Positions 23,441 to 63,636 of a stretch of DNA of 64,000 bases are shown one piece after another (the first letter of the stretch is position 1; every line of letters starts with the position of its first letter). Made by a program: the position numbers and the translations under genes. The stretch covers positions 895,835-959,834 of the forward strand of contig BOKX01000001.1 of the NCBI GenBank assembly GCA_016861205.1. The letters run 5' to 3'. The DNA is from Patescibacteria group bacterium (GTDB taxonomy: Bacteria; Patescibacteriota; Microgenomatia; UBA1400; PJMF01). The notes beneath the pieces are model-generated. The model worked only from the letters and a program-made list of their open reading frames with translations, was not told the origin of the DNA and did not search any database.

Positions 23441-23540
23441 TCAAGACTTGTTTGCTGCAAAAGTAACAAGTTTGACTTTTTCTTCACTGTTTTAGGAGCA
23501 GCTGCTCGGAATTCTTTCCGAGATCAGGTACTCAACTAAA

Positions 23541-37007: not shown

Positions 37008-37036
37008 AGAAAAGTGAGGCTCCGGCCTCACTTTTT
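37008..37036. terminator. Bidirectional intrinsic terminator between convergent genes
   Basis: Stem GTGAGGC / GCCTCAC with loop TCCG, flanked by an A-run (GAAAAG) on the left and a T-run (TTTTT) on the right. It overlaps the stop codon of the minus-strand ATPase gene. Confidence 0.65.
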
Positions 37037-46679: not shown

Positions 46680-47378
46680 ATGCAACCTCGTAAGGCAGTT
46701 AATCAAGCCGGTTTGACTATGATTGAACTGCTACTGGCTCTGGGAATTGTCTCAATTTTGCTCATCGCCGCTTATTTCCTGATGCAAACTCAGATGTCGC
46801 GTTCCCGCGACGCCCGACGCAAAGCTGATTTAGAGAAGATCAAAGTAGTTTTTGAAGACTACTACAATGACAACACGTGTTATCCACCTGCCGATGTTTT
46901 GTTGAACTGCAATGCCAACACCTTAAACCCGTATTTAGATAAAGTGCCTTGTGATCCAACGGGGGAGCCGTATCTCTACCAACCAGAGGCAGATCGTTGT
47001 GCCGGCTATCGTATTTACGCGCGAATTGAAGAACCAGATGATGAAAATGTCGTTGATCTAGGCTGTGATGGAGCAAATGGCTGCGGAATTGGGGCGGGCT
47101 TTGAAGCCTACAACTACGGAGTTTCTTCGGGTGTTCCGGTGACTACACAGGCAGCTGGTGGGTCCAATCCCACCCCTTCGCCAAGTGGCGGTGGCGCTTC
47201 ACCTTCGCCGACCTCTGGGGTCTATGTCTGTGTTCCTGTGTGTAACGTCGCTACTCAAGATTATGCAGATAACTGTGAAGTCACGTTTACCAACTCAAAT
47301 TGTGACAATGCCTGTGGCTCATCTGCCAACTGGTGTGAGTACGCGATCAGCGGCGGAGCCGGGGGCGGGGGTGGCTGA
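46680..47378 (+). CDS. Type IV pilin-like protein 1 (prepilin leader, Cys-rich, S/T/P-rich segment)
   Basis: Class III signal MQPRKAVNQAG|LTMIELLLALGIVSILLIAAYF with Glu at +5. Ser/Pro/Thr-rich tract GSNPTPSPSGGGASPSPTSG. Eight Cys residues near the C-terminus. Confidence 0.8.
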   Translation: MQPRKAVNQAGLTMIELLLALGIVSILLIAAYFLMQTQMSRSRDARRKADLEKIKVVFEDYYNDNTCYPPADVLLNCNANTLNPYLDKVPCDPTGEPYLYQPEADRCAGYRIYARIEEPDDENVVDLGCDGANGCGIGAGFEAYNYGVSSGVPVTTQAAGGSNPTPSPSGGGASPSPTSGVYVCVPVCNVATQDYADNCEVTFTNSNCDNACGSSANWCEYAISGGAGGGGG

Positions 47379-47950
47379 TGAAAATCGCAGGCAAAAAATA
47401 CTCTTATCGCACCTTAGATACAACTTACTCAAGACAAAGTGGTTTCACTTTGATCGAAATTCTAGTGGTGATGGTGATCATTGGTATTCTGGCTACCCTG
47501 GGGGTAGGGAGCTTCCAAACTTCACAGCAGAAATCGCGCGATGCGCGGAGAAAATCTGATTTGCGACAAATTGGTTTGGCCCTCGAGGCCTACTACAATG
47601 ATTACGGACAGTATCCGCTGAGTACCGCTGACAATCGCATCAACGGGTGTGCGGGTGGGGCTTGTACTTGGGGAGAGCAGTTTGCTGATGCTAATGGTAC
47701 GGTGTATATGGTCCAGTTGCCTGAGGATCCCAAAACCACCTTTACCTACTATTACTATGCCCCAAGTCCAACTGAGTATCAGCTCTACGCTCGGCTAGAG
47801 AACAACTTGGATCAGAGTGTTCCGACCGATGCTCAAAACAATCCGCAAGTCTATCAGAACCTCGACTGTGGGGCGTATACTTGTAACTACGGGACTTCCA
47901 GTGTTAATACTACCCCCGCCACTGGCCAGACCTTAGTGGACGATACGTAA
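47378..47950 (+). CDS. Type IV pilin-like protein 2
   Basis: Prepilin signal ...SRQSG|FTLIEILVVMVIIGILATLGVGSF, then ...QKSRDARRKSDLRQIGLALEAYYNDYGQYP (pilin alpha1-beta loop pattern). Its start overlaps the previous stop as ATGA. Confidence 0.8.
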   Translation: MKIAGKKYSYRTLDTTYSRQSGFTLIEILVVMVIIGILATLGVGSFQTSQQKSRDARRKSDLRQIGLALEAYYNDYGQYPLSTADNRINGCAGGACTWGEQFADANGTVYMVQLPEDPKTTFTYYYYAPSPTEYQLYARLENNLDQSVPTDAQNNPQVYQNLDCGAYTCNYGTSSVNTTPATGQTLVDDT

Positions 47951-47951
47951 T

Positions 47952-48455
47952 ATGATCAAGTCCTACCTACCTCAACCCAGTTTAGTTCGTCGCCAGGCGG
48001 GTTTTACCCTGATCGAGATCTTGGTGGTTATTTCAGTGATCGGTATTTTGGCAGGTTTGTTGTTGACGAACTTTGTCGGTGTTCGCGAGCGGGCAGCAGA
48101 TACCAGCCATAAGAATGACTTGCGTCAGCTCAAAACCGCGCTGCGTCTCTACTACAATGACGTAGGAAGTTATCCTGATGCCGGAGCTGGAGCCACCATT
48201 CAAGGTTGTGGTAGCCCTGCCGGCACATCTGTATGTGCTGATGCTTTCTCATCAGGTACAACTGTTTACATGAATGAGTTGCCGGCTGACTTTGCTTACT
48301 ACAGTGATGGCATTGATAGCTTTTTGCTAGTGACTACTCTGGCGAACGCATCTGATGAAGACATTACTGCCAGCGTGAACCGCTGCGACCCAGCTAGTCG
48401 CGGATATTTCGGTCAGACGATTGGTCCGACGGACTACTTTGTGTGTGAAGACTAG
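47952..48455 (+). CDS. Type IV pilin-like protein 3
   Basis: Prepilin signal ...RRQAG|FTLIEILVVISVIGILAGLLLTNF, then ...HKNDLRQLKTALRLYYND. Confidence 0.8.
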   Translation: MIKSYLPQPSLVRRQAGFTLIEILVVISVIGILAGLLLTNFVGVRERAADTSHKNDLRQLKTALRLYYNDVGSYPDAGAGATIQGCGSPAGTSVCADAFSSGTTVYMNELPADFAYYSDGIDSFLLVTTLANASDEDITASVNRCDPASRGYFGQTIGPTDYFVCED

Positions 48456-49320
48456 GTTCAGGTGAGTTGGCATTCGCAAATGCGGCTTGCAGTGCTTCGA
48501 TATTCGGTCGGTAGACAGCAATTCGCCCGCCTCCAATTTGCTCTATCTCATCATACTCGCCACCCAGTTCATATCGTCTGGCCACATCGCCAATAGTGCC
48601 TGCCATCAGTTGTGAGCGACCGAACTTGTTGGCTGTGATTGGTTGGAGTTGGCCTGTTTCCTCATCCGTAGCAATTTCTCGCACCGTGGCTGAATGAATG
48701 AGTTGTCCAGAGCCGTCATAAAAAAGCACGACATCGCCAACAGCTATGTGTGTGGGGTCGACCACATTTTCGCCAAAACCCGCTTCAAATGAATCAGTTT
48801 CTGTTACCAACTCAGAAAATTGGATAACTAGTGAGTCGACACCAGCCTCGAGCCAAGAATTGCGATCGCCCCCGAAAGAAACTCCGGCGCGTTTTTCCAA
48901 CAGCTGGAGGGTGTAGCTGTGGCAGTTAAAGTTCGGGTTGGCCAGGTCTGACAAATACTGCATTGTTTCGGCTGGCGGATTGTTGATTTGTTCGTCAGCG
49001 TAACGGCGGACATCCATGTTGTAGACGTAAAAGCTGAGGTCGATCTCGATGGTCTCACCATCGGTGGTGTGACAGGTGATCGTTGTGTTCTTGGAGGCTG
49101 CATCGAAAGACATGGCGATATCACACACCAGTTGGTCGAGATCTTGAGCGTCGGTGACCCCGTGGGGGAAGAGGAGGCCCAAGGCCACTAGAATGGTGAG
49201 TAGAGCTTGCTTGCGGTAGGCGAGAAACTCAGTGGTTTTTTGAGTTAGCTCAGACCAGTTGATCTGCACCAAAGCTTGCGACTCAGTTGGCTGAAGTTCG
49301 GGGACTGGTTTTTCAGACAT
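48394..49320 (-). CDS. Hypothetical membrane-anchored protein (308 aa)
   Basis: N-terminal TM helix ALLTILVALGLLFPHG. Its 3' end overlaps the 3' end of pilin gene 3 by 62 bp (convergent overlap). Confidence 0.5.
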   Translation of the reverse strand: MSEKPVPELQPTESQALVQINWSELTQKTTEFLAYRKQALLTILVALGLLFPHGVTDAQDLDQLVCDIAMSFDAASKNTTITCHTTDGETIEIDLSFYVYNMDVRRYADEQINNPPAETMQYLSDLANPNFNCHSYTLQLLEKRAGVSFGGDRNSWLEAGVDSLVIQFSELVTETDSFEAGFGENVVDPTHIAVGDVVLFYDGSGQLIHSATVREIATDEETGQLQPITANKFGRSQLMAGTIGDVARRYELGGEYDEIEQIGGGRIAVYRPNIEALQAAFANANSPEPSLHTQSSPSDQSSDRNIRD

Positions 49321-49394
49321 CGCTTGATTGTAGCAAAAACAAGATCAGGTGTGTCCCGTACTCAGTCGCTTGACCTCATCAAAGGCAGAAGCTC

Positions 49395-50132
49395 TTAAGG
49401 AATCAGGTGGCCTTCGCAAGTGTTGCCGTTTGCATCAGAGTTAGTGCCATCAGGGCAAGTGGTATTTGACCAAATGGGGTTCTCACGATTGGCTGTATTG
49501 ACATTGAGAGCCCCCGTTAAATTGGCGTTCGTAAAGTTGGTTTCAATTAAGGCGGTGTTGAAAAGGTTGGTGCCCTGTAAGTTTGCGCCGGTGAAGTTGA
49601 CTTGCTGAAGTCCCGAGTTTCTGAAACTGGCGCCAGCCACGTTTGCTCCGGTGAAGTTTGAGCCACTAAGGCCGCTATTTTTTAGTCTGGCCTCTGTCAA
49701 GTTGGCCCCGGAAAAGTTGACATTGTCCATATTATTGCTATTGATAACAGCTTTGATCAGACTCGCTCCACTAAAATCAGCATTCCTCAAGTCACTAGTT
49801 GCAACGTGGAGTGAGTCCAGGTTTACTCCAACAAATGAGCTAACATTGGCACGGCTTAACAAATCTTCCACCTCACAAGCAACGCAAATGAGAGTGCTCG
49901 TGCCAGAACTGGGGAAGTCTTTTGGCCAGCTCAAGAGAGTTTCTTGGTGCCGGCACTCTGTATCTGGTGGCACAATCCGAATGTTGGGTGCGTTAAAAAT
50001 GGTGGGGCGAACACAGGCGTAGATCCGATTTGACTCAACACCCTGAGCGTGGACAACAGCGACGGCAGCTGGTAACAAAAGCCCGCCTAAAAAAGCGGCG
50101 CTGGTGAGGAAGAGAGTTTTGGGAGTGAACAT
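49395..50132 (-). CDS. Secreted pentapeptide-repeat protein
   Basis: Signal peptide MFTPKTLFLTSAAFLGGLLLPAAVAVVHAQG. About 20 consecutive A(D/N)LxG-type pentapeptide units (NADFSGASLIKAVINSNNMDNVNFSGANLTEARLKNSGLSGSNFTGANVAGASF...). Confidence 0.8.
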   Translation of the reverse strand: MFTPKTLFLTSAAFLGGLLLPAAVAVVHAQGVESNRIYACVRPTIFNAPNIRIVPPDTECRHQETLLSWPKDFPSSGTSTLICVACEVEDLLSRANVSSFVGVNLDSLHVATSDLRNADFSGASLIKAVINSNNMDNVNFSGANLTEARLKNSGLSGSNFTGANVAGASFRNSGLQQVNFTGANLQGTNLFNTALIETNFTNANLTGALNVNTANRENPIWSNTTCPDGTNSDANGNTCEGHLIP

Positions 50133-50202: not shown

Positions 50203-53200
50203 TTAGTTCAGTAGCCACCAGGTGAACTGGACGTCTCGGTCGGGCAGGGCGGTGTCAAAGCCGACCACGAACTGACCTTCTTTTTCAGAGGTGCTTGGGT
50301 TTTCAGGAGTGATTGACTTGACGTACAGGACTTGGTTGTTGGTTGAGCCGAGTGGGGTGACCTGGACGACTGTTTCACTGGTGATTTGCTCAGACTTGAT
50401 GACCATTTCGGTCTGGCCTTGTTTGACGACAGCCTTACCTGAGGTCTTGGTGGTTTCGGCTTGGTTCTCGTTACCACTCAAGTCTTGGGCGCCGACCCCG
50501 ATACCGCCAGCGAAGTTGGCGCGGCCGTCGGCTGAGATGGTGGCGACTGGGGTGCCAAGCTCGTCGACGATCTCGAAGCGTGACTCACGGACTTCGCCAG
50601 ACTCGGTGGCTACGCCAGCGACTTTGACTTGCAATGGGTTGGTGAAGTCAGTGGGTTGGATCAGATCAGTTAGGAGGCTGTCCTCAACAGTCACGGTACC
50701 AGCCACGGTTAGGTCACCCGTCACGATGACTTGGCCGTTTGACTTCAAGCTAAGTAAGCCAGCCATCATCGACAGCGTACCTTGGCCATGAGGTTGAATT
50801 TCAAACACGGTCTCGGCTGGGTTAGCAGAGTCTAAGTAGCTCAAGACACCATCGCTCAGCTGGGTACCTTCACCGATCAGCAGTTGGTTGGCAATGCCCA
50901 CTGAGTCACCGAAGTAGGCAGAGCCGTTGACCTCGAAGTAGCGGTTGATGAAGGCAGCATCGGCACCGATTGAGACGTCAGTGCTGGCTAAGTTGAGGTC
51001 GCTGAGTGACTTGTTCATGATGGCAGAGCCAGTGGCCGAGTAGCCAGCTTGGTCGATGACTGAGAATAGGGAGGCGACTGAGGCAGCGGTGGAAGCGTTA
51101 TCAGGTTCGCCGAGCAGTTGAGCCAACAGAGACGGTTTCTGAATGGCGGTGGCCACTTTGTCGTCAAAGCCGTCAATGTTGTCGGCGTACAAAGTGCCAG
51201 AGATGGTGGCGGTGATCAACTCAGCGGTGTCCGCCTTGATCTGTTCGAACTCAGCCACTTTGCCCTCAAGTGCAGCGATACGAGCTGAGGTGGCGTCGAG
51301 TTGACCGGAGATAGTAGCGGTACCACTGATACTGGCATTGTCACTCAAGAGTGAGCCTAGGCGAGAGGTGCCGTTGACAGTCAAGTCGCCCGCCAGCTGG
51401 GTGTTGCCTTGGTCGTCGATGCTGGCCACTGGTTGGTTGTTTTGGTTAGTGACCTGGAAGCGGTCATTGTTGTCACTCAGTTTGACGTTAACAGTGTCGC
51501 CAACTGGAGTGATGAGGTCAGTTTTAACCTCTGGAGTTTGGATGCGGACCTCAGCCAAGAGCTGGCGAGTGCGAATCACGCCGGCTTTTAGGTTGGCCAC
51601 GGCTAGTTCAGCAAAAGCATCAACTTTCTCGAGCAGATTGCCGTTGTAGCTGGCATTGTAGGTGGCGGTGGCCACAGGAGCGGAGTCATTGCCAGCGATA
51701 GTTACGTCACCGCTCGAAGTAATCCGGATGCTTGGGTCGAAGTAGGAGGTGTTAACAAACACCATGACTTTTCCGGTGCCGGCCTGTGGTTCGGGCAGAG
51801 GTTGACGCTCTGATGAACCAGCTAACCGATCCTGCTCAACTTTAAGTGTTCCAGCTGAGAGTTTATGGGTGCCATCATAAGCTTCAAGGGCATAGCCGAT
51901 AATTCGGCCGGCCTTGGTAGCTTTCATGGCCACACCTGGTTGACTGGCAGAGGTTAATGGATCGCCAACGGCAATTGGGCCATTTTCTAGACTGACCTTG
52001 ACTGGCACGCGTCCAACCAAGGCCACTGGTTGAGTATCAACCACTTCGCCGCCCTCAGTATCGCCCCATCCCGCTACTAATCCTGGGTCAGTGGAAATGA
52101 CGCCTACTACCATGCTGTCATAACTGACGCCTGAGCTCTTGCTTAGGGTTTTTCCAGGTTCAGCAACAGGTGCTGTGGTAATGGCTACCAAGTCACCCTC
52201 TTCAGCGTTGCCCAAAACTTTGTACATTTCGGCTACGTCAGCACCGCCACCGTTCCAGGCTCCATCAGCGTAAGCCTGACCATTGGTTTCAAGACGATAT
52301 TCATTGTCTGGGGTGCCGTCTTCGTCAGTTCGCAGTAGCATAAAGTACTCGTTCGCGGTGCCCACATCGTTGGTTGACCAAGCTGACATAACCTCAAATG
52401 TGCTAAGCAAGTGCGATCCAACACTGGTGCCCGTCGCCCCGAACGGTGTGCCACCTTCACTGGTTACCCACAATCGTGTTCCACCACCTTGAGTGGTGCC
52501 GATAGCCACCGAGCCATTGTTCCTGACTGACATGACGTGGCGGCCACTAACGCCTGCCCGGAAGATATCGCCACTACCATTGTTTTCAACTCGCAAGCCG
52601 ACACCACTGGTTGAGCCTGAGAAGGTGGCAATTGGTAGTGATGAGGAGTAACCACGAACATCAACAGCTCCCAGCAGATTAGCATTTGGGGTGTTAACAC
52701 CCATGCCACCACTGTTGGTGAGGACAAAGCGGGTGGTACCTGAGGCTGAGGCAGTAAACAGGTCACCATTAGACTCGGTTTGGTTAATGGTCAAGACAGC
52801 CTTGCCGAAGGCAGGGGTGTCGCCACCAGTTTGGAGGTGGAGTAAACCTAAGTATGATCGACTGTCACCGAGGATAGTCCGATTTGTGACCCCATCAATA
52901 TGGAGAGCGTAGGAACCGTTGGAGCCGGGGTCACTCAGGTAGTAGTTATTGAGGATAAACTCATCAGCGCCACTATCAGCTGAAATTTGCCATAAGTTAC
53001 CTAGCTCAGTTGCTCCATCATTGTGACTAAAGATGATGTTTGAGGCACCACCGTCAACTGAACTCATCTGGAACTCAGCGTACGGATCGCCACCAGCGAA
53101 GGATCGGAACATCATGGTGGCTCGAGTAGAAGCTCTCTCAAAGTGGAGTCCGTAGGCAGGGGCGGTAGTGCCGATACCCAGGTCACCGTTACCGAGCAAA

Positions 53201-56200
53201 GTCAGATCGGCCGCGTTGTCATTGTTGCGAACTTGGAAGACAGTTTCGGCGGCGGCCAAATCAACTACCCCGGTGCCCGATCGGCGGGCGCCAGTTAGCA
53301 TAATCATCGGTACAGTGTCTGTGGGGTTGGTAGAGCCAGAGTAGCCGCGCAGTTCGAGTGCCTGTGCGCCAGAGACTTGGTCAGCAAACCCAGTTAACAT
53401 GGCTCCACCGTTGGTGCCAGAGATTGCCCCGATGTGGAAGATGGTGTTCGTGGTGGTCACGCCAGTGATGCCGTGCGCCACATCAGCATCACCCATGGCA
53501 AAGGTGGTGTCACCCGAAGTGGTGACCAAGTGCAAGTTGTAGGTCGGGGCAGTAGTGTTGATGCCAACTCGACCGACGCCGTTAAGCGGGTTGAGATAGA
53601 TGTTGCCGGTAGTGGCGCCGCCAATGGTTATAGGTCGGCTACTTGTCGATCGAATGGTACCCCCAGATCCACCTAGAGTGATGTCACCAGAAATAGAAGC
53701 TGTTGGAAAACCACCACTGACGTTATTTAGGAAGGCAAAGTTAGCACTGTCAGTGGCTAAGCCACCAACTAGGAGGTCGAGCGTGTTGTTGGTGGGACTC
53801 AGTGCGCCCTGATACAGTCGCCAGTAGGCACCCAGCGAAGTTTCTGGGTTGGCCCAGGTGAGGGTGCCTGAACCGTTCGTCTGGAGAATGTAGCCAGCTG
53901 TTTGTGATGTTGGCCAGGTGTAGGCTAAGTTGCCAAAGACCGTCGTGCCATCTACTTCCAAGTCACCTTGAATGTAGAGATCATTGTCAGTGCTCATACT
54001 GCCGGAGGCACCAGCCGTTGAATCAGCCATCAGGTTGTAGTTCACCGTACTGCCATTACCGCCGATGTTCAAAATCGCATCAGCACCGAAGATGGCATCG
54101 CCAGCAATGTTAAGAGCGGTGCCAGTAGCAGCTGGGTCGAGATAGAAGGCTTCGTTAGCCATATCAGAAAAGCGCTGAGCGATGGCGTACCCATTAGTGT
54201 CAACTCGGAAGCGTGTCACGCCAGAAACTGAGGCTGACAGAATGTCGCCTGAGTTGAGCTGGTCGATGACCAGGGCCGCATTGGAGCTGTAGTTGCCAAC
54301 CACATGGAGATCTGCGTGGGGAGCGGTGGTGCCGATCCCGACGTTGCCATCTGAGTTAATATGAAGTCGGTCAATCCCACTAGTCATGAGGGCAACATCT
54401 GTCCATGAACCATGAGCTGCAAAACGGGCAGTGGTTCCCGAGAAATCAACTGTTTGTGCACCGCCGAGTCGGAAATCGGTGGAAGCGTTGACATATCCAT
54501 TGCCAGTAATGTTGCCGACGACTTGCAGCGCCTGGCTTGGACTCGTCGTCCCAATCCCGACGTTGCCACTGGGGAGAATGGTCATCGCGGTCGTCCCATC
54601 AGACACAAAACTCAGATTACCGGTGTTGGCGTCACCGAGTGTCAGAGTGCGCTGGTTGGTGGTGGCAATCACCCCAGCTGAGTTGAGCGTAATATTGCCC
54701 GAGATACTGGCAGTAGGTGTACCTGAGTTGACATTGATGAAGGCAAAGTCAGCGCTGCTCGAGGCGCTCCCGCCGATGAGCAGATCAGTGGTGTCGTTAG
54801 CGGGAGAGAAGGCACCATCAATGATTCGCCAGTAGTTAACAGCTTGAGAGGTGGAAGCGATGCCCACCCAGGTACTGCCATTATAGTAGTAGGGAATGTT
54901 GTCACCCGTGTTGTAGTACATCGAGCCGGCACCAAGTGCAGTCGGGTTTGAGCCAAAGTTGCCGATGCGTGTCTGGCCTGCAATCGAGACGTTTTGACTA
55001 AAGTTAAAGTAATCACTGGTCGTGTTGTAGCTCATGATGCCCTCATCACCGCTTGAGCCGATGTGGAGGCTACTGGGGCCAAGGTACAGATCTTGCCAGC
55101 GTAAGGTGTCGCTGCCCAAGTCGCGAGTGTCATTCCCATCGGGCAAGAGGTTGCCCACAATTTCCACGGTGCCAGCGGTCAGGCTAAGGGTGCCATCGAC
55201 ATCGTTGTCGATAGTTTCGCCGTTTTGGAATGAGATGTCGGTAGTGACGTCAGCGTCGGCGATGTTGATAGCGTTGACGATGCCACCGGAGATGTTACCG
55301 CTGTTGGTAATGTATATGGCATTTTGCACGACCGTTGAGCCTGTGCCTGAGGTATCTTGGTTGTCGAGTCGGAGAAGCGCAGTGACGTTGTTGTCGGTGG
55401 TGTTAGAAGTACCCATGTTTCTGACTTGAAGAGCGTACTCGGTGTTTCCAGAAGTTGATGGATTGTTGGTTAATCGGACATCAACCCCGGCCAGGTCCGT
55501 CGTGCCGCTACTGTTGCTGTTGGTAACGTTGAAAATGTTGGCAGTTATGCCGCCAGTCCCAGCTGGGTTATAGGTGGATGAAAAGTACGAGGCAATTCCG
55601 GTGGTCATAGTGTTGGAAATTACAGAGTAGCCAATTCCAGCTGTACCTGTGTACTCCTGTTGCCAGGGGTAACTTCCTTGACTCAGCAAGAATTGATTAT
55701 CAAGCGTGGGACTGTCAACGAACTCGGTGAAATCAATACAGTCGGTACAGCTGAAGTCGCTGGCGGTGACGGTAGCATTGGTAAAGTTGACCACAGTGCC
55801 ATCAGCTTCGAGGTTGCCCTCGATGTACAGGTCGTCGTCACTGTCCATACTGGCCGAAGCGCCGGCAGTTGAGTCGCCGATCACGTTGTAAGCCACGTCT
55901 GAGCCTGAGCCACCGACGTTGAAGGTGTTGGTATCGGTAAAGATCAGGTCGCCGCCACCGATATTGAGGGTCAGGTCACCAGTGGTGGTTTGGAGGGTGC
56001 TGGCTTGATAGAGAACTAGATTGCCGGCGTTACTTAAGCTCAGTCGTCGTGTGCCAGAAGCAGAAGCAGCCAGGATATCGTCAGAGCCAGTTTGATTGAA
56101 CATGGCTAGGGCGTTGCCAGCGGCATTTGCCGTGCCAGTGACGACAAATCTGCCCAGAGGTGCAGTGGTACCAAAACCAACGTTACCACCTCTAGTCATA

Positions 56201-59200
56201 GCCATGTAGTTGCCGGCGGTGGTGCCAGTATTCAAAAATGTACCAAACGTGACGTAGGCGTTACCGCCCCCAGAGTTGTTACCGCCTTGAATGCCAGCAG
56301 ACAACATATTCCCTTGACCGTCGCCGCCGCCAGCCCTGATTAAGAATGGACTACTTGGACCGCCACTGTTGGCCCAGATGCCGCCATTGACGGTCAAAGT
56401 GTCATTGATATTGCCGGAGGTAGTGTTGATACCGACCCGACCACCAGTTGGGTTGAGGACCAGTGTCCGGTTGAGGCTGGTCGTAATTACACCATCTCCA
56501 GTCAGTGACAAGGCGTTGCCCGCCGTGGTGCCAGACATACTGGCGGTGACGTTGCCAGAGCCGTTGATGTTGGTCACGGCAAACCGGGCGCTGGCAGTGG
56601 ACTGGCCCCCGATTAACAGATCCACAGTCGAGTTAGCCGGGTAGAGGGCGCCGTTGCCTTGGTACCAGAACACATTGGCTAGAGTGGCCACTGTGGTCCA
56701 GCTTAGGACACCTGAGCCATCGGTGCTCAACACCTGGCCAGTGCTACCAGCGGTGTCTGGTAAGGTCAGTGTGACATCTGACCCGACCGTCGCGGGAGCC
56801 TGCAGTGCCACGTAGTTGGTGGAGTCGGAGTCAGCTAGGCGGAGGTCGCTCTGAGCTGGCAAGAAAACGTTGTCGTTTAGGTCAATCTGAGTTGAGTTGG
56901 AGCTCAAGCGCAAGTTACCACTCACATCTTCAATGACGTGGGCGACGCTGTCGATAACTGAAATAATTCCGCTGCTGTTGATCTGGAACTGTGAAGTGCT
57001 ACCCACTGAGAAAAGTGAGTCTGGAGTGGTATCTCCACCCACGCCCACGTTGCCAGCACCAGTGATGGTCATGCGGTTGTTAGCGCCGTTGGTGTAGAAG
57101 TTGATAGCCGCGTTCTGGCGGTTGGCAAAACCGATTTCTGAACCGTTAGAAGTTCCAAAGTCAGCAGTAGGTGTTCCAGAAGTATCAGTAAACTGAATGG
57201 CGCCACCAGCGCTACCTGCGATTACAAGTGACGTATAGTCACTGCCACCGGTAGAACGCAGCCACAGCCGACTCACTTGACTTGCACCACCCCAACCCGT
57301 TGCAACGTTGGTTGGAGCAGTGGTGCCGATACCGACGTTATTCAAGTTGCGGTCAAAGGTCATGATGTTACTCTCAGAACCACCAGTTACCCCTTGAACG
57401 TACAAGCGGCCAGATGAAGCATCTTCTAAGTTGAAAGAGTAGCCAGCATCACTATTTTGCTGTTTTAGGTACAAAAGCTGTGTGTTGCTGCTGACGCCAT
57501 CAGCATCCACAATGGTCAGCACTCGGTTAGAAGAGGTAGTTCCAATGCCGATGTTGCCATCTGGACGCATGGTCATCAAATGGGTGCCATCTGAGTAGAA
57601 GTTAATGTTTCCGGTGTTGCTATCACCAATATTGAGTGGTTGCTGATTAGTAGTAGCAATGACACCGGCAGAGTTAAGGGTGAGATTACCAGAGATACTG
57701 GCGGTGGGAGTGCCACTATTCAGATTGATAAAGGCAATATCTGCGCTGGCACTGGACTGACCACCAAAGAGGACATCGACAGTTGAGTTGGCTGGGTAGA
57801 GAGCACCATTGCCTTGGTACCAGAAGATGCTGGATAGCGTGGCAGCGCTGGTCCAGCTCAGGACACCTGATCCATCAGTGGACAACACTTGGCCACTGTC
57901 GCCATCAGTATCTGGCAAGGTGAGGGTGTAGTTGGTGCCGATGGTGGCGGGGGCTTGAATCGCGGCGTAGTTGGAAGAGTCGCTATCGCCAAAGCGCATG
58001 TTACCTTGAGTGTTGATGAAGATGTTTCCACCAGCAATCTGCAATCGTTCGTTAATAGTAGTAGTACCAATACCGATGTTCTGCGAACTGTTAATGCGCA
58101 TGGCGGTGGTGCCGTTGGTGGCAAAGCCCATGGCGTCGATGTCGTGCATGTAGCTGATGACACCCATGTCTTCGCTATCTTGGTCTGAAAAGCTTAGGAT
58201 TTGGTGAGCGGTGTTGCCACTGACCCACTTGAGGCGATTGGTGCTAAAGGCCTCGAGTACCAACATGTCGTTGCCATCCAGTGAGTAGCCGCGGGTGCTG
58301 CTGCTGCGGTAGAGGTGGGCAAAGCCCTCTGGGGCGGTGGTCCCGACCGCGATCCGGCCACCTGAGCCGTTGTTGGGCATCATGATGATGTTACCGGTGG
58401 TGGAGCCGCCGAGGGTGAGAGAGCGATTGTTGGTGGACTGGATGGCGCCACTGGTGTGGTTGAGCGTCAGGCTACCGGCGATCGAAGCGGTGGGGGTGCC
58501 TGAGTTGTTATTCAAGAAAGCAAAGTTGGCACTAGCCGAAGCCTGACCACCGAAGAAGACGTCCACGGTTGAGTTCAGTGGGAAGAGCGAACCATTGGTT
58601 TGGTTCCAGTAGTTGGTGCCGGCGGCTACCCACGAGAGGACGCCAGAGCCGTCGGTAGACAGAACTTGCCCACTGTCACCGTCATTGTCAGGCAACGTGA
58701 GGGTGTAGTTGGTTCCGATCGTGGCCGGAGCCTGGATAGCAGCGTAGTTGGTAGAGTCGGAGTCGGCTAGGCGGAGGTCGCCCTGGGCGTTGATCTGGAA
58801 GTTACCGGTAGCAAGTTCGAGGGCGTTGGTAGGAGTAATAGTGCCGATTCCGAGATAGCCATTTTCATCAAAGGCGCTTAAACCAGTGCCACTCGAGTTT
58901 TGCAGTTCAAGTAAGTTATTAGTCTGTGACGTAGCAGCTCTGATTTTTACCGCAATTTCATTGGCTGTTTGGTTAAAAACTGCAAAAAGATGATCTGTTT
59001 CAGTACTGATGGTACCGACATTGACGGAGTCTCGTGCGTTACCGTAAATCGTGAAGAGATTGTCGGTTGATCCGCCATCAGCACGGAGAATGGTGAAAGT
59101 GTCAGAAGCTCCGATGTTGTCTGGGTTCAGCCAGATTCCTGGTGCTCCAGCACCACCTAATGCAACCAAGCGTGCGTTAACACCACTGGTTCTGTTTCCA

Positions 59201-62200
59201 TATAGGCTGGTTGTTTGATTACTAATTGACAGTTTATCGGTCACACCCGCATCACCACCTGGACTCGTCCGAATCACAAATGATTCTCCGTTCAAAATAT
59301 TGATTGTTGGGTCAGTTGTCCCTCGGAAGGAAAGTGTGCCCGAGAGTGATGCTGAGCCAGCTACGTCAAGTGTGGCCGTGGCATTGGTACTATCAAATCC
59401 TGGCCCGATGCCCCAGTTACCAGCCGAACTCACAGCACCAATCACACTGTTGTTCAGAGCAAAGAAAATCTGACGGCCACTAGCAGCATTGAGGTACGTG
59501 CTCCCGACATTCGATTGCAGCAGGGCGTAATTACCAGTGGCTGAGTGATCTAGTGCCTGGTTGCCAAAGTAGGCATAGTCAGTGTTGGCTGGCCAGGCAC
59601 CGGTTTCGGCAGCTCCAATTCGACCGGTGGTAGTGATGCTGCCAACGGCAAAGTCAAAGTCAGGGCTGGAGGTGCCGATACCCACTCGGCCACCGGTGGC
59701 ATTCAGGGTGAGTGTTCGGTTAAGGCTGGTTTGAATGGCGCCGTCGCCATTGAGTGACAGAGCATACCCGGCGGTGGTCCCAGACATAGTGGCAGTGACT
59801 GCGCCAGAGTTGACGTTAGTCACCGCGAACCGGGCGCTGGCGGTAGATTGACCACCGATGAGCAGATCCAGAGTTGAGTTCACCGGGTAGAGCGCACCAT
59901 TACCAGTGGACCACAAGCTGTTACCGATGGTAGTGCCGTAGATTTCATTAATGGCATCTACGAGGCCTTGGGGCAAACCGGCATCCAGAGCGGTGTCAGC
60001 TACAGTCAGAGCGATGTTGCCGGTGCGGGTGTCGCTCAGATACAGCTCTCCGTTGCTGCTCAAAACCAAGTTGCCAGAGGAGTTAGCTAAGGCGTGGGCC
60101 ACGCCACCAATGGCGGCGATGTTTCCAGAGGAGTTAACCTGGAACAGATCGCCATTGCCGACGGTCAGCATGGCTGCAGGTGAAGTGTCTCCGATACCGA
60201 AGTTGTTGTTGAAGAGTGTAGCCAGTGTGGCATTTCCAACTTGGAAACCAATTGAGCTGGCAGCGGCTGTATCAAGCACGAGTGAACCAGAACTGAGCAA
60301 CTCAACAGAACCGGAACCTGTATTCTGGATAGTCAGTTCACCAGCTGAAGTGTCAAAGTAGGCGTTGCCCACGACGTGGAGTGTTTGCCCAGGCACGGTG
60401 GTACCCAAACCCAACAGACCAGCGTTGGTCAAGACCATTCGGTTTGTACCAGAGGCAGAGGCGGCGATGATGTTGCCAGAATTGGTCTGGTCAACCACCA
60501 GGGCAGCGTTGGAACCGTAGTTACCGACTACATGGAGATCTGCGATGGGTGAAGTGGTACCGATGCCAAGATTTCCGTTACTATCGAGAGTCATGAAGGC
60601 AGTACTTGATTGTCGGAAGACAAGCCTTCCGCCACCGTATGAGCTAGCATTACCAGTTGAGTACAAATTAAAACTAGTTCCGCCGGCGCCAGTATTTGAA
60701 AGGCCAACCATCGGTAGAATAGATGAAATCTCCAGCTGATAAGCTGGAGTCGTGCTGCCAATTCCGACATTACCTGTTGGCAAAAGTGACATGACCTCAG
60801 TTGCAGGGAAACCTTGGTTGTATCGATTAGCATAGCTGTATGAGCCAATAGCTAATCGTGAAGCCGTATCGGTGAAACCTAGTACAGCTCCGCTGGTGCC
60901 TGTCCAAAGATTCACAAACCTACTGGCGTCGGTTCTTTCAAAAACGAAACCTGGTGTGCCAGTCCCGGCAGTGACTCTGACTGGGAAGGCAGGAGAGCCG
61001 GAAGGTGCTGCTGATGGACCAACAACATCAAAAAGAGTGGCAGGAATCGAAGTCCCAATCCCCACATTCCCATTCTGGGTAATCACAAACCGGTTTAAGC
61101 CTGAGCTGGAGGCGGTGAAGATGTCACCCACACCTGAGTTATCGGCTACCAAGGTGGCAAAGGCGGTAGCACCAGAGACAGAAGCAACCGGCAGCGTCCC
61201 AGACATGGCCCTCAGGTCTAAGGTGCCTCTGGGACTAGTTACGCCATTTTCACCAATTCCTACCAATCCAGCTCCAGTAATGGTTACTCGTGAGAGCGCG
61301 TTGGTAGCCAAAGTTAGGGGAGTGTTTTCTCGGTTATAAACCAAGGCACCACCATTGTATCCGAGAGTCAGCCCATCGTTTTCGCTATGTCCAGTGGCGC
61401 TTGAAGTGATACTGATGTACGCCAAAGCACTATTTTGTGCAGAAACTTGAAGTTTCGAGCGAGGACTAGTTGTGCCAATTCCCACATTGCCATCGTTTGG
61501 ATTAAGGAGCAACGAGCGACTTAAGCTTGTGGCGATAGTACCATCACCAGTCAGGTATAAGCTGTTCCCAGCTGTTGAACCCGAAAAACTAGCCGTTGGG
61601 GTGCCGCTATTTACATTCAAGAACTTGAAGATGGCACTGGCACTCGACTGGCCGCCAATCAAGACATCCATGGTTGAGTTCTTGGGATAAATGACACCGT
61701 CACTGGCTGACCAGTGCACGCTGCCAGCACCAGCCAAAGCTGGATCTACCCAGCTTAAGGTGCCACTGCCATTTGTAGACAAAATATACCCAGAGGCTTG
61801 GGAGCCGGGCCAAGTGTAGGTGATGCCATTGAAAGCGGTGGTCCCAGTGGCAAAGTCAAAGTTGCCGCTAGATGAGATGGTCAGCCGATTGTTGCTGCCG
61901 CCGGTTCGGAAGATTAAGGAGCCAGTGGCGTTGGTAGCAGAAACGTAGTTCTCAGCGTTTCGTGAGAAGGCCAGGGTATTGGCTTGGAGCGTGGAGTTGT
62001 AAGCAGCTGCCTGAGTGACAGTCAGAGCCCCGTCACTGCCAAAGTAGGCCAGGTTGGTACCACTGCTGTTGTTGATGTCAGCGATGTGGGCAGTGCCACT
62101 CGGGCCACCCTGAACAGTCAGTGGCACGCCGCCGGCGTAGGTGGCTGAGATGGTGGCACCTGGAGAATAGACGTAATCTCGAGAGATCACCCCACCGATA

Positions 62201-63636
62201 CCGTCGGCATCTAAAACTATGTCGCCATTGCTACCACTAGCAGTTTGGAAGAGGAGGCTACGACCTTCCAGAGTAAAAGTCCCAGAAAGAGACCGAATCT
62301 CCGGGTTAACTTCGCCTAAAACGACACTCCCACCACCGTCCATAAACAGGATGGTGTTCACTGTGGCTGCCCCGGTGGCAGAGATGGGGTACCCCTGCAA
62401 AGTTTCGGCGTTCAGAGCGTAAGCTACCGTGCGAATTGGTTGGCGAGGGGTCAAGGTCTCGCTGCCGACTCGGACTTCTAGGTAGGTGCTGGCGTTTTCC
62501 GAAAAGACAAACTCGTTGATTTCAGCGCCACAGGTACCGTCACCCAGATTAGTGTTGAAAATGCCATCCTGATCGGGAGTCACACTACAGCTGCCTTGCC
62601 AGAGAAGTGGGCCGGCATCACCTGGGGTGTCAGTGTAGGCGCCGTTACTGGGGTGGTTGTAGATACTGAACACCATCGAGGTGCTGCTCGTGATGGGGTT
62701 CTGGTTGGTATCAGTCAGACGACCTTGGAAGGACAATATCCGATTCGGCTCGACAGGTGTGCTGGGATAAGCGAGTGGAGTGTTGGCTGTCTTGAAGAAC
62801 TGTTGGTATCCAAACACACCTAATCCCAAGATAAATAACACCAAGATAGCCAAGTTAAGGTAGGTCACCCAACCTTGACTGGCTTTGAAGACGGAATTAA
62901 GGCGTTCAATGCCTTGTCTCCAATTTTGTCGAGTTGAGACTTTTTTGACTCGAGGTCGAGGCGGAATAATTTCTACTTGAGGTTTTTTTGGTTCCAGAGC
63001 TGGCTGGCTGACTTTTGGCTCAGCTGGTTTGATTGGAGCTGGTTCTGGATTCGGCTTGATGACAGGCATCTCAGCAACTGCTTGTACAGCCTGGACAGTT
63101 ACTGGGACCTCGAGCTGGAGTAACCCGTGTTCCTCACACCACTGCCAGAAATGCTGCAAACTCGAGGTTTTACGCTTGATACTAGAGGGTTGTAAGCCGT
63201 TTTGATCTTGGAATCGCTCAAAAGCGGCGATTTGGTTTTTGGTAAGGCCAACGCTGACCACTGAGGTCCGACAAAAAGTAAAGAATTGGCTGATATCATT
63301 GCGGTAATTTCGAACAGTGGAGTTTGAGCACTTGTTAAGCTTGAGTGCTAAAACAAACTTTGGTAAAGCGACTTCGATCTGGGAAGCTGGAAACTGGTTC
63401 AGAAACTGAGTAGCCAGTTGGTAGTGAGTGTCCGTTGGCTGTCGGTCGGCCGGTAGCTGACCGATGAAGGTGGCCCAGCCCTCAGCAGACCAGCTGCTGG
63501 GGTCAGCTTGCCAGCTACAAAACTCTGTCAAGAGGTGAGCTAGCTGACTGGCTTCTGCCGGCAGCACACCAGAGCCTTGAAAGAATGTCACGGCGGCGGC
63601 AAGTGGGGAAATCGTGCGCGGAGGTTGGGCAAGCAT
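50203..63636 (-). CDS. Giant surface protein (4477 aa): cytoplasmic tyrosine-recombinase-like N-terminal SAM/core-binding domain (no catalytic domain), Pro-rich linker, single TM helix, ~4200-aa repetitive extracellular region with phage-tail-fibre-like repeats
   Basis: Intact 13.4-kb ORF. N-terminal aa ~85-175, LKLNKCSNSTVRNYRNDISQFF...QPSSIKRKTSSLQHFWQWCEEHGLL, parallels XerD LEKNLAENTLNAYRRDLSMM...KATSSARLLSAVRRLFQYLYREKF. TM helix WVTYLNLAILVLFILGLGVFGY at aa 256-277. Repeated modules ...SDSTNYAAIQAPATIGTNYTLTLPDNDGDSGQVLSTDGSGVLSW... (x3) and ...YTWPGSQASGYILSTNGSGTLSW.... Highly Gly/Ser/Thr/Asn-rich beta-repeat composition. Confidence 0.85.
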   Translation of the reverse strand: MLAQPPRTISPLAAAVTFFQGSGVLPAEASQLAHLLTEFCSWQADPSSWSAEGWATFIGQLPADRQPTDTHYQLATQFLNQFPASQIEVALPKFVLALKLNKCSNSTVRNYRNDISQFFTFCRTSVVSVGLTKNQIAAFERFQDQNGLQPSSIKRKTSSLQHFWQWCEEHGLLQLEVPVTVQAVQAVAEMPVIKPNPEPAPIKPAEPKVSQPALEPKKPQVEIIPPRPRVKKVSTRQNWRQGIERLNSVFKASQGWVTYLNLAILVLFILGLGVFGYQQFFKTANTPLAYPSTPVEPNRILSFQGRLTDTNQNPITSSTSMVFSIYNHPSNGAYTDTPGDAGPLLWQGSCSVTPDQDGIFNTNLGDGTCGAEINEFVFSENASTYLEVRVGSETLTPRQPIRTVAYALNAETLQGYPISATGAATVNTILFMDGGGSVVLGEVNPEIRSLSGTFTLEGRSLLFQTASGSNGDIVLDADGIGGVISRDYVYSPGATISATYAGGVPLTVQGGPSGTAHIADINNSSGTNLAYFGSDGALTVTQAAAYNSTLQANTLAFSRNAENYVSATNATGSLIFRTGGSNNRLTISSSGNFDFATGTTAFNGITYTWPGSQASGYILSTNGSGTLSWVDPALAGAGSVHWSASDGVIYPKNSTMDVLIGGQSSASAIFKFLNVNSGTPTASFSGSTAGNSLYLTGDGTIATSLSRSLLLNPNDGNVGIGTTSPRSKLQVSAQNSALAYISITSSATGHSENDGLTLGYNGGALVYNRENTPLTLATNALSRVTITGAGLVGIGENGVTSPRGTLDLRAMSGTLPVASVSGATAFATLVADNSGVGDIFTASSSGLNRFVITQNGNVGIGTSIPATLFDVVGPSAAPSGSPAFPVRVTAGTGTPGFVFERTDASRFVNLWTGTSGAVLGFTDTASRLAIGSYSYANRYNQGFPATEVMSLLPTGNVGIGSTTPAYQLEISSILPMVGLSNTGAGGTSFNLYSTGNASSYGGGRLVFRQSSTAFMTLDSNGNLGIGTTSPIADLHVVGNYGSNAALVVDQTNSGNIIAASASGTNRMVLTNAGLLGLGTTVPGQTLHVVGNAYFDTSAGELTIQNTGSGSVELLSSGSLVLDTAAASSIGFQVGNATLATLFNNNFGIGDTSPAAMLTVGNGDLFQVNSSGNIAAIGGVAHALANSSGNLVLSSNGELYLSDTRTGNIALTVADTALDAGLPQGLVDAINEIYGTTIGNSLWSTGNGALYPVNSTLDLLIGGQSTASARFAVTNVNSGAVTATMSGTTAGYALSLNGDGAIQTSLNRTLTLNATGGRVGIGTSSPDFDFAVGSITTTGRIGAAETGAWPANTDYAYFGNQALDHSATGNYALLQSNVGSTYLNAASGRQIFFALNNSVIGAVSSAGNWGIGPGFDSTNATATLDVAGSASLSGTLSFRGTTDPTINILNGESFVIRTSPGGDAGVTDKLSISNQTTSLYGNRTSGVNARLVALGGAGAPGIWLNPDNIGASDTFTILRADGGSTDNLFTIYGNARDSVNVGTISTETDHLFAVFNQTANEIAVKIRAATSQTNNLLELQNSSGTGLSAFDENGYLGIGTITPTNALELATGNFQINAQGDLRLADSDSTNYAAIQAPATIGTNYTLTLPDNDGDSGQVLSTDGSGVLSWVAAGTNYWNQTNGSLFPLNSTVDVFFGGQASASANFAFLNNNSGTPTASIAGSLTLNHTSGAIQSTNNRSLTLGGSTTGNIIMMPNNGSGGRIAVGTTAPEGFAHLYRSSSTRGYSLDGNDMLVLEAFSTNRLKWVSGNTAHQILSFSDQDSEDMGVISYMHDIDAMGFATNGTTAMRINSSQNIGIGTTTINERLQIAGGNIFINTQGNMRFGDSDSSNYAAIQAPATIGTNYTLTLPDTDGDSGQVLSTDGSGVLSWTSAATLSSIFWYQGNGALYPANSTVDVLFGGQSSASADIAFINLNSGTPTASISGNLTLNSAGVIATTNQQPLNIGDSNTGNINFYSDGTHLMTMRPDGNIGIGTTSSNRVLTIVDADGVSSNTQLLYLKQQNSDAGYSFNLEDASSGRLYVQGVTGGSESNIMTFDRNLNNVGIGTTAPTNVATGWGGASQVSRLWLRSTGGSDYTSLVIAGSAGGAIQFTDTSGTPTADFGTSNGSEIGFANRQNAAINFYTNGANNRMTITGAGNVGVGGDTTPDSLFSVGSTSQFQINSSGIISVIDSVAHVIEDVSGNLRLSSNSTQIDLNDNVFLPAQSDLRLADSDSTNYVALQAPATVGSDVTLTLPDTAGSTGQVLSTDGSGVLSWTTVATLANVFWYQGNGALYPANSTVDLLIGGQSTASARFAVTNINGSGNVTASMSGTTAGNALSLTGDGVITTSLNRTLVLNPTGGRVGINTTSGNINDTLTVNGGIWANSGGPSSPFLIRAGGGDGQGNMLSAGIQGGNNSGGGNAYVTFGTFLNTGTTAGNYMAMTRGGNVGFGTTAPLGRFVVTGTANAAGNALAMFNQTGSDDILAASASGTRRLSLSNAGNLVLYQASTLQTTTGDLTLNIGGGDLIFTDTNTFNVGGSGSDVAYNVIGDSTAGASASMDSDDDLYIEGNLEADGTVVNFTNATVTASDFSCTDCIDFTEFVDSPTLDNQFLLSQGSYPWQQEYTGTAGIGYSVISNTMTTGIASYFSSTYNPAGTGGITANIFNVTNSNSSGTTDLAGVDVRLTNNPSTSGNTEYALQVRNMGTSNTTDNNVTALLRLDNQDTSGTGSTVVQNAIYITNSGNISGGIVNAINIADADVTTDISFQNGETIDNDVDGTLSLTAGTVEIVGNLLPDGNDTRDLGSDTLRWQDLYLGPSSLHIGSSGDEGIMSYNTTSDYFNFSQNVSIAGQTRIGNFGSNPTALGAGSMYYNTGDNIPYYYNGSTWVGIASTSQAVNYWRIIDGAFSPANDTTDLLIGGSASSSADFAFINVNSGTPTASISGNITLNSAGVIATTNQRTLTLGDANTGNLSFVSDGTTAMTILPSGNVGIGTTSPSQALQVVGNITGNGYVNASTDFRLGGAQTVDFSGTTARFAAHGSWTDVALMTSGIDRLHINSDGNVGIGTTAPHADLHVVGNYSSNAALVIDQLNSGDILSASVSGVTRFRVDTNGYAIAQRFSDMANEAFYLDPAATGTALNIAGDAIFGADAILNIGGNGSTVNYNLMADSTAGASGSMSTDNDLYIQGDLEVDGTTVFGNLAYTWPTSQTAGYILQTNGSGTLTWANPETSLGAYWRLYQGALSPTNNTLDLLVGGLATDSANFAFLNNVSGGFPTASISGDITLGGSGGTIRSTSSRPITIGGATTGNIYLNPLNGVGRVGINTTAPTYNLHLVTTSGDTTFAMGDADVAHGITGVTTTNTIFHIGAISGTNGGAMLTGFADQVSGAQALELRGYSGSTNPTDTVPMIMLTGARRSGTGVVDLAAAETVFQVRNNDNAADLTLLGNGDLGIGTTAPAYGLHFERASTRATMMFRSFAGGDPYAEFQMSSVDGGASNIIFSHNDGATELGNLWQISADSGADEFILNNYYLSDPGSNGSYALHIDGVTNRTILGDSRSYLGLLHLQTGGDTPAFGKAVLTINQTESNGDLFTASASGTTRFVLTNSGGMGVNTPNANLLGAVDVRGYSSSLPIATFSGSTSGVGLRVENNGSGDIFRAGVSGRHVMSVRNNGSVAIGTTQGGGTRLWVTSEGGTPFGATGTSVGSHLLSTFEVMSAWSTNDVGTANEYFMLLRTDEDGTPDNEYRLETNGQAYADGAWNGGGADVAEMYKVLGNAEEGDLVAITTAPVAEPGKTLSKSSGVSYDSMVVGVISTDPGLVAGWGDTEGGEVVDTQPVALVGRVPVKVSLENGPIAVGDPLTSASQPGVAMKATKAGRIIGYALEAYDGTHKLSAGTLKVEQDRLAGSSERQPLPEPQAGTGKVMVFVNTSYFDPSIRITSSGDVTIAGNDSAPVATATYNASYNGNLLEKVDAFAELAVANLKAGVIRTRQLLAEVRIQTPEVKTDLITPVGDTVNVKLSDNNDRFQVTNQNNQPVASIDDQGNTQLAGDLTVNGTSRLGSLLSDNASISGTATISGQLDATSARIAALEGKVAEFEQIKADTAELITATISGTLYADNIDGFDDKVATAIQKPSLLAQLLGEPDNASTAASVASLFSVIDQAGYSATGSAIMNKSLSDLNLASTDVSIGADAAFINRYFEVNGSAYFGDSVGIANQLLIGEGTQLSDGVLSYLDSANPAETVFEIQPHGQGTLSMMAGLLSLKSNGQVIVTGDLTVAGTVTVEDSLLTDLIQPTDFTNPLQVKVAGVATESGEVRESRFEIVDELGTPVATISADGRANFAGGIGVGAQDLSGNENQAETTKTSGKAVVKQGQTEMVIKSEQITSETVVQVTPLGSTNNQVLYVKSITPENPSTSEKEGQFVVGFDTALPDRDVQFTWWLLN
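53600..61900. repeat. Family of diverged intragenic tandem-like DNA repeats (units of ~0.3-0.8 kb, ~70-85% identical) inside the giant gene
   Basis: Clearly related blocks by eye at ~56560-56880, ~57700-58020 and ~58490-58800 (e.g. ...gacacctga.ccatc.gtg...cttggcca.tg...ggtgtagttgg...ggagtcggagtc.gctaggcggaggtcgc...). More diverged copies lie near 53730, 54700, 59830 and 61620. Confidence 0.7.

Follow-up and report, generated by a model that had tools for sequence, protein, structure and literature searches.

In a 64,000-nt stretch of patescibacterial DNA (contig BOKX01000001.1; hereafter the window), we analyzed one giant gene whose predicted product is a membrane-anchored, fibre-like surface protein of 4,477 amino acids (aa). 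Protein self-comparison and alignment revealed that the gene contains seven in-frame, dispersed copies of a module of ∼150 aa. We consider it likely that these copies are ancient structural modules of a fibre-like protein, that they are not recombinogenic at present, and that mosaicism arises slowly at the module cores. The gene and its modules are listed below; D1 to D4 are direct-repeat families, and the blocks of similar DNA are those noticed in an earlier, sequence-only reading of the stretch.

50203..63636, minus strand: predicted giant membrane-anchored fibre-like surface protein, one open reading frame (ORF) of 4,477 aa (ORF list and translation)
61429..61890, minus strand: module M1, aa 583-736 (module hidden Markov model (HMM), 177 bits, and alignment)
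59629..60048, minus strand: module M2, aa 1197-1336 (module HMM, 154 bits)
58291..58782, minus strand: module M3, aa 1619-1782, block ∼58490-58800 (HMM, 217 bits; repeat families D1-D3)
57490..58005, minus strand: module M4, aa 1878-2049, block ∼57700-58020 (HMM, 233 bits; repeat families D1-D4)
56395..56850, minus strand: module M5, aa 2263-2414, block ∼56560-56880 (HMM, 192 bits; families D1, D3 and D4)
54499..54891, minus strand: module M6, aa 2916-3046, without the collar half (HMM, 151 bits, profile positions 37-157)
53506..53955, minus strand: module M7, aa 3228-3377 (module HMM, 189 bits)

At the DNA level, a repeat search found eight direct-repeat families in the gene region, and all spacings were multiples of three. 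Families were located at 56563-56882, 57718-58037 and 58504-58814, with more copies near 54709, 59791 and 61591. When the gene was compared with itself by sensitive BLASTN, 13 off-diagonal high-scoring segment pairs (HSPs) of 26-297 bp with 68-76% identity were obtained. Their offsets were all divisible by 3 (13/13), so they are in frame. The top HSP aligned 57689-57982 with 56531-56827 (72.4%, 297 bp, E 3e-42). Two others aligned 59677-59904 with 56428-56658 (74.9%, 231 bp) and 58543-58794 with 57757-58017 (72.0%, 261 bp). No HSP was obtained from codon-order shuffles of the gene (n=20), so the repeat signal is far above chance and the repeats are real. The three blocks are therefore among the repeat families where the sequence-only reading had placed them, and the off-diagonal signal it had set as a test is present in the gene and absent from the shuffles. 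Its estimates by eye were too high: identity was given as ∼70-85% and measured as 68-76%, and length was given as 0.3-0.8 kb, whereas DNA-level blocks measured 0.07-0.3 kb and only protein-level matches reached ∼190 aa (∼0.55 kb). Tandem Repeats Finder detected no tandem array. The copies are dispersed, with module starts 259-665 aa apart and unrelated sequence between them. A shufflon or invertible segment was also considered and rejected, as there were only three inverted repeats of 20-25 nt, which is chance level; the window has no invertible segment.

Whole aligned modules are 36-63% identical, and the best local match is 78% (M2-M5). A module consists of an optional collar, a core and a tail. 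The collar is of two types, YTWP..Q..GYIL.TNGSGTLSW or YTLTLPD..G..GQVLSTDGSGVLSW. The core is rich in invariant residues and follows the pattern W...G..YP.NST.D.L.GGQ.S.SA.F.F.N.NSGTPTAS.SG, also given as W..G.lYP.NST.D.L.GGQ.S.SA.F.F.N.NSGTPTAS.SG. The tail is short or long and terminates in G-x-V-G-I-G-T-x-x-P. Among the seven copies, each collar type occurs with each tail type, which indicates that the modules themselves are mosaics. The module was not found in other genes of the window.

The copies are old. For every pair, the synonymous divergence (dS, Nei-Gojobori) was 1.3-2.6 or not computable, and the nonsynonymous divergence (dN) was 0.33-0.69. Saturated dS indicates that the copies have not been homogenised. 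The same codon was used at conserved residues with a frequency of ∼0.35, compared with ∼0.35 expected from the codon usage of the gene, and a slight excess was seen only for M2-M5, M4-M5 and M3-M4. When synonymous codons were permuted and the protein was kept, self-BLASTN gave 8.7 HSPs and 596±85 bits; the observed values were 13 HSPs and 1061 bits. Since the signal survives this permutation, more than half of the DNA similarity follows from protein conservation, and the bits observed in excess of it represent a faint remnant of common descent. The longest exact stretch common to copies was 17 bp, compared with 13-17 bp in codon-shuffled genes. Most modules are nearer to modules of other species than to their sisters. 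M4 shares 77% identity with a module of locus L002 and at most 64% with each of its sisters; for M5 the figure is 71% with an L002 module, and for M1 it is 61% with an L003 module.

RecA-type recombination has a minimal efficient processing segment of ∼20-30 bp, and it falls log-linearly with divergence, by orders of magnitude. By these thresholds, the module copies would be very poor recombination substrates. The copies are ancient and diverged, and rapid size switching today is not supported.

The giant gene is correctly assembled. The Logan assembly of DRR258781 includes a contig with 100% identity over 23,798 bp, and the NCBI contig on which the protein is found is 1.15 Mb long; an identical 4,477-aa product is called on two other contigs. 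No word longer than 17 bp is repeated in the gene, which is too short to mislead an assembler working with k=31. The sequence-only reading had suspected assembly collapse, in which the true gene is longer because further near-identical modules were merged by the assembler. In favour of this idea, repeat-driven fragmentation of giant genes has been documented (10.1101/2023.11.21.568195), and genes of this family are over-represented at contig ends. A contig end cuts 41 of 80 family loci inside the gene, and on contigs of at least 50 kb this was the case for 9 of 34, compared with 1.7-3.4 expected (P ≤ 0.004), one of these contigs being 1.17 Mb and one 725 kb long. The gene family appears to be a systematic assembly breakpoint. 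For the present gene, however, the short repeated words, the identical 23.8 kb in an independent assembly, the position inside the 1.15-Mb contig and the collinearity of a ∼93% identical relative from two other samples make collapse extremely improbable.

That relative encodes P0134 (4,514 aa), found as the same assembly from two samples (L082/L083) and fully syntenic with this gene. L082/L083 are 92.6-95.2% identical to it in nucleotide sequence. The backbone shows dN of 0.013-0.016 and dS of ∼0.30 (dN/dS ∼0.05). P0134 has the same seven modules, at matching positions and in the same order. Two segments, V1 and V2, are unalignable between the two genes, with a net difference of +37 aa in P0134.

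61204..61590, minus strand: variable cassette V1, 387 bp here and 375 bp in P0134, unalignable (BLASTN, sliding identity, dS)
54349..54547, minus strand: variable cassette V2, 199 bp here and 328 bp in P0134 (BLASTN, motif scan)

Beyond V1, identity is reduced (78%) as far as ∼61851, across the M1 core. In that core the two genes are 78% identical and either is 81-82% identical to the gene of P0133, a more distant orthologue, compared with 93% between the backbones of this gene and P0134. V2 fits exactly between two GNVGIGTT.P motifs (aa 3024 and aa 3097), and 41-nt copies of the motif flank it at 54320-54360 and 54539-54579 (repeat family D5). Inside V1 and V2 dS is saturated, compared with ∼0.30 in the backbone, so the cassettes are replacements and not fast-evolving loops. 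Close relatives thus vary by wholesale replacement of segments between conserved motifs, not by repeat number. Homologous exchange with diverged alleles is the most likely route of cassette replacement. Targeted hypermutation by a diversity-generating retroelement (DGR) could in principle make V1 and V2; DGRs are described as common in CPR (Candidate Phyla Radiation) genomes, where they target surface proteins. However, no template-like copy of any part of the gene was found elsewhere in the window on either strand, and each cassette has a different length in the two genes (387 vs 375 bp; 199 vs 328 bp) and cannot be aligned, instead of being substituted at particular bases. We give a DGR hardly any credence.

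The repeats could instead mark a contingency locus, in which they serve as active substrates of RecA-type unequal recombination and frequently produce expansions, contractions and mosaics within a population, in the way of tandem-repeat adhesins. They are in frame, recent duplications of 95-100% identity occur in family members of other species, and contigs often break inside family genes, all of which agree with this idea. However, the copies are only 68-76% identical, and no perfect match exceeds 17 bp, below the ∼20-30 bp minimum; their saturated dS argues against homogenisation; they are dispersed and not tandem; module number and order are identical at dS 0.3; and two assemblies are identical. 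A contingency locus is therefore very unlikely, and present-day size variation of this gene is not supported, given the seven modules in the same order in the ∼93% relative, the short exact matches and dS of at least 1.3.

More distant orthologues do differ. The module HMM counted 7, 8 or 9 modules in orthologues: P0133 (locus L084; 4,687 aa, syntenic) has 8 and P0136 (4,918 aa) has 9. Copy number, which the sequence-only reading had proposed to compare among strains or metagenomic bins, is constant in the one close relative and changes in distant ones. The ends of P0133 are collinear with this protein, and the region aa 720-2960 is re-ordered, with blocks of 86-95% identity adjoining blocks without a counterpart. 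In the fourth module of P0133, the M4 upstream region and collar (∼95%) are joined to the M2 core and tail (∼90%). In the first module of L002, the M1 collar is joined to the M4 core and the downstream 460 aa (74%), skipping ∼1,270 aa; at this position the module of the outgroup L003 is of M1 type over its full length. Both junctions lie in the same conserved ∼20-residue core, and these joins are old (dS at least 1.1). Recombinational variation, as first suggested, holds over evolutionary time, as seen in the 7-9 modules, the chimeras, the cassettes and the duplications in relatives; it is not supported as a present-day mechanism.

One block behaves differently from most of the gene. Between this protein and P0133, aa 1681-1920 (57877-58596; M3 tail, inter-module sequence and M4 collar) are 91-95% identical, with dN of 0.08 and dS of ∼1.1. 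The block is far more conserved than most of the gene, and only the N-terminal ecto-domain (86%, dN 0.09) is comparable. Such conservation suggests that it may be a functionally critical part. A recent lateral transfer of the block was rejected, as its dS of 1.1 is like that of the flanks.

Another explanation is that the modules are purely structural domain repeats which never took part in recombination, with DNA similarity as a by-product of protein conservation, the chimeras as independent domain shuffling or assembly artefacts, and the cassettes as fast-evolving loops. The permutation result fits this explanation, since more than half of the BLASTN signal can be reproduced from the protein sequence alone, and L002 may be mis-assembled. 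However, two independent chimeras change parent within the same ∼20-residue core, and exact repeats in the P0133 gene, which is present on two contigs, do not exceed 29 bp. Saturated cassette dS beside a backbone dS of 0.3 is also not expected from fast protein evolution alone. We regard the purely structural explanation as unlikely.

The preferred reading, ancient modules with slow mosaicism, would work as follows. Ancient internal duplication would have produced the seven copies. Purifying selection on the protein, not ongoing gene conversion, would keep the modules alike, and the copies would by now differ too much for useful rates of recombination among themselves or for an assembler to mix them up. 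The conserved core would serve, over long times, as the crossover point at which modules are joined, lost or gained, which would give rise to orthologues with different module numbers and to chimeric modules. Between close relatives, segments between conserved motifs would be swapped wholesale by homologous exchange with diverged alleles. For the family as a whole, the sequence-only reading is right: its genes would evolve by duplicating and deleting segments in frame and by exchanging them into mosaics, the joints being the module core and the G-x-V-G-I-G motifs. The repeats and their age, the module counts, the chimeras and the cassettes are observed, whereas the trimeric fibre, adhesion and recombination as the origin of chimeras and cassettes are inferred.

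Several points weigh against this reading. The AlphaFold2 (AF2) model of M4 built from the seven-copy alignment was poor, with a predicted local distance difference test score (pLDDT) of 52. No donor of V1 or V2 was found in the gene, in the two orthologous genes or among the fetched family proteins, and the nearest candidates were 37-47% identical in aa or ∼75% in nt. One close relative was available, which is a minimal population sample. The P0133 chimera dates far back (dS 1.1-1.4) and therefore yields no rate, and L002 is a 7.9-kb short-read contig ending in module sequence, whose chimera could be an assembly jump. Recombination at the module cores is a reading of sequence patterns only. 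On the protein side, the sequence match of a fibre segment to the PDB is weak (26 bits), and trimerisation, surface exposure and binding are predicted properties.

The other features of the giant protein are as follows.

63136..63357, minus strand: N-terminal phage-integrase SAM-like domain, aa 94-167 (Pfam PF02899, E 3e-6, 27.8 bits vs cut-off 22.3)
62794..62871, minus strand: sole hydrophobic (transmembrane, TM) segment, aa ∼256-281 (Kyte-Doolittle scan of the whole protein)
62227..62769, minus strand: family-wide highly conserved extracellular domain (LSFQGRLTD...YALNAETLQG; alignment with invariant columns)
60361..60666, minus strand: fibre segment, aa 991-1092, similar to the trimeric beta-helix region of the Bdellovibrio mosaic adhesive trimer (MAT) fibre Bd2133 (phmmer vs PDB)
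51727..52242, minus strand: conserved C-terminal domain, aa ∼3799-3970 (ADVAEMY...PVALVGRVPVKV), phi29 gp12 autochaperone-like fold (AF2 and Foldseek)

The SAM-like domain is the only Pfam match; the modules and most of the protein had no counterpart in Pfam, NCBIfam or PHROGs. No recombinase catalytic domain (R-K-H-R-H/W-Y residues) was found after the SAM-like domain, where the TM helix and fibre come next. The XerC/XerD models of NCBIfam aligned over profile positions ∼4-105 only, with 37 bits against cut-offs of at least 330. Since only the first ∼100 positions match, the 4,477-aa protein is not a recombinase. An identity as tyrosine recombinase, which is the annotation of many homologues, was thus rejected: the C-terminal catalytic domain had no match and the Xer score was 37 bits. 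The SAM-like domain, a fold of DNA-binding type, would lie in the cytoplasm, opposite the fibre. There are 10 lysine or arginine residues in the 40 aa preceding the TM segment and 3 after it. This bias suggests an N-in/C-out anchor with ∼4,200 extracellular residues, as in a type-II membrane protein, and the topology is accordingly a predicted one.

In a phmmer search against the PDB, the G-N-V-G-I-G-T-T-x-P units matched 8OND (Bd2133; E 4e-6, three stretches) and 8OJN (E 0.0025). The fibre segment at aa 991-1092 is one of the 15 motif units G-x-[VILF]-[GA]-[VIL]-[GN]-x3-[PGS] (GNVGIGTTSP type) in the protein. The C-terminal domain was modelled by AF2 with pLDDT ∼90. Its best Foldseek matches were pre-mature phi29 gp12 and the C-terminal autochaperone fragment of gp12 (3SUC, E 8e-4; 3GQH_A, E 5e-3, TM 0.54). 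The homologue P0012 has a match to PF11962 Peptidase_G2 (E 1.8e-6) at the aligned position, which agrees with the gp12-like fold; the 4,477-aa protein itself gave no direct Pfam match to Peptidase_G2. Pfam also gave no S74 chaperone match in this protein, which instead has the gp12/Peptidase_G2-like fold at aa 3799-3970. The evidence on the giant protein shows a membrane-anchored, tail-fibre-like fibre. The product is probably a surface-displayed trimeric attachment fibre, as judged from these matches, and "giant adhesin" is a plausible and reasonable label for it.

The N-terminus consisting of SAM-like domain, TM segment and ecto-domain occurs in 407 loci of GTDB species representatives, which were retrieved with two peptide patterns from the conserved ecto-domain. 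Homologues were all from metagenome-assembled genomes of Patescibacteria type. Many members are annotated as "site-specific integrase, partial", which is probably a mis-annotation. At E ≤ 1e-3 the module profile matched 20,514 cluster representatives, and at E ≤ 1e-30 it matched 445; among the matches are proteins as long as 7,453 aa and with as many as 62 matched stretches. When the C-terminal 1,098 aa and the N-terminal 600 aa served as queries, only distant relatives of at most 42% identity and at most ∼1,900 aa were obtained; these searches missed P0134, and the query's own cluster is represented by a 48-aa fragment. A scan of JGI metagenomes with the N-terminus found no relative, and a narrow literature search found no description of a SAM-like/TM/fibre architecture in Patescibacteria.

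Self-BLASTN of 80 family genes gave best internal repeat identities from 66% to 100%. Near-identical in-frame internal duplications (95-100%, 0.4-1.9 kb) occur in other members, for example L017 (100%, 406 bp), L060 (98.9%, 1,064 bp), L056 (98.3%, 1,318 bp, adjacent copies) and L024 (95.1%, 1,937 bp). The contigs of L014, L067, L008, L033, L080, L016, L071, L055 and L035 (54 kb to 1.17 Mb), from other Patescibacteria genomes, end within the family gene, shortly past the conserved N-terminus. Hint/intein-splicing domains (PF14890, PF01079) are inserted in the fibre part of P0084, P0093, P0097, P0112 and P0123, and by alignment these intein-like insertions sit after a G-I-G-T-T-x-P motif.

For the recognition and holding of host cells by ultra-small episymbiotic CPR bacteria, a conserved chromosomal tail-fibre-like giant protein would be a concrete candidate for a host-range determinant. 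The value of the gene lies in this candidate role in host attachment, with two identified variable cassettes, rather than in the repeats themselves. Strong purifying selection on the backbone contrasts with two cassettes replaced between close relatives, and the gene would serve as a marker for strain tracking. For genome work, this gene is assembled correctly, yet its family breaks contigs and is often mis-annotated. A broader proposal, which we regard as possible and rather doubtful, is that the protein is the host-recognition fibre of an episymbiotic patescibacterium and that its family (at least 407 species-level loci) is among the main specificity determinants of the group, with interchangeable modules, with V1 and V2, bounded by G-x-V-G-I-G-T-x-x-P motifs, swapped between lineages to retarget host range in the manner of T-even phage tail fibres, and with the conserved cytoplasmic SAM-like domain, of DNA-binding type, linking the fibre to an intracellular process.

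The chromosomal neighbourhood includes LeuRS, PGK, Rho, Obg, 23S/5S rRNA, three pilin-like genes and a sortase. The stretch 46680-50132, immediately downstream of the giant gene, contains three type-IV-pilin-like (N_methyl) genes, a 308-aa gene of unknown function and a pentapeptide-repeat gene. L082/L083 and L084 retain the pilin/TPR/Obg/LysM-M23 synteny; the pentapeptide and 308-aa genes are missing from L084. A tRNA, a full-length 23S rRNA (2,925 nt, no insertion) and a 5S rRNA lie at 20196-23666. There is no 16S rRNA gene in the window, so the rRNA operon is apparently split. A 694-aa protein at 37028-39112 (minus strand) combines domains of type IV secretion coupling proteins (TrwB/TraG-like) and of HerA-type ATPases; the ORFs scanned included no further obvious genes for conjugation. 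Two large ORFs, at 14282-18622 (plus strand, 1,446 aa) and 24024-28904 (minus strand, 1,626 aa), have essentially no Pfam annotation and no fibre module, the 1,626-aa ORF having only a C-terminal CarboxypepD_reg domain in Pfam.

Size-variable adhesins, such as group B streptococcal alpha C/Rib, staphylococcal SasG/Aap/Bap and Candida Als, have tandem, nearly identical DNA repeats in strain-variable number. The present protein resembles them as a large surface protein with in-frame internal repeats, and some family members also have near-identical repeats. In contrast, its own copies lie dispersed, share 68-76% identity and do not vary in number in the one close relative. In phages, T-even gp37/gp38 "His-box" swapping and fibre mosaics of the P2/Mu type involve short conserved motifs that flank segments exchanged between lineages. 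V2, which lies exactly between two GNVGIGTT.P motifs, and the gp12-like C-terminal autochaperone fold are like phage fibre and tailspike genes. Unlike phage fibres, this gene is chromosomal with a housekeeping neighbourhood, and its product is membrane-anchored instead of virion-attached and about ten times longer.

Bd2133 (8OND) and 8OJN are MAT fibres, which Bdellovibrio displays for prey handling (PMC10769870). MAT proteins are ∼1,000 aa in length; a signal peptide is followed by a beta-rich stretch of ∼130 aa that forms a conserved domain, and the end is an S74 chaperone or a tip domain (PMC10769870). Like the Bdellovibrio MAT proteins Bd2133 and Bd3182 (PMC10769870), the giant protein has detectably homologous beta-helical G-N-V-G-I-G-T-x-x-P fibre units and a phage-tail-fibre-like build in which a shared stalk and divergent segments form a mosaic. 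Bdellovibrio attaches to other bacteria, which we count as a likeness to the host of the giant protein. Unlike MAT proteins, it has 4,477 aa and a cytoplasmic SAM-like domain, TM anchor and different ecto-domain at the N-terminus in place of the signal peptide and beta-rich MAT domain; S74 was not detected, and the gp12/G2-like fold lies ∼680 aa before the end.

Giant surface proteins have been predicted in Omnitrophota and in further bacteria that are ultra-small or predatory; they exceed 30,000 aa and contain HEAT, TPR and dockerin domains (10.1101/2023.11.21.568195). They share with the present protein great length, repeat richness, membrane anchoring, extracellular location, proposed action on other cells and repeat-linked assembly fragmentation. 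The present protein differs in its tail-fibre modules and its far smaller size. Diverged domain repeats in giant surface proteins are a known, ordinary feature. The giant protein fails some defining features of both MAT fibres and phage tail fibres, and these two are its nearest described relatives.

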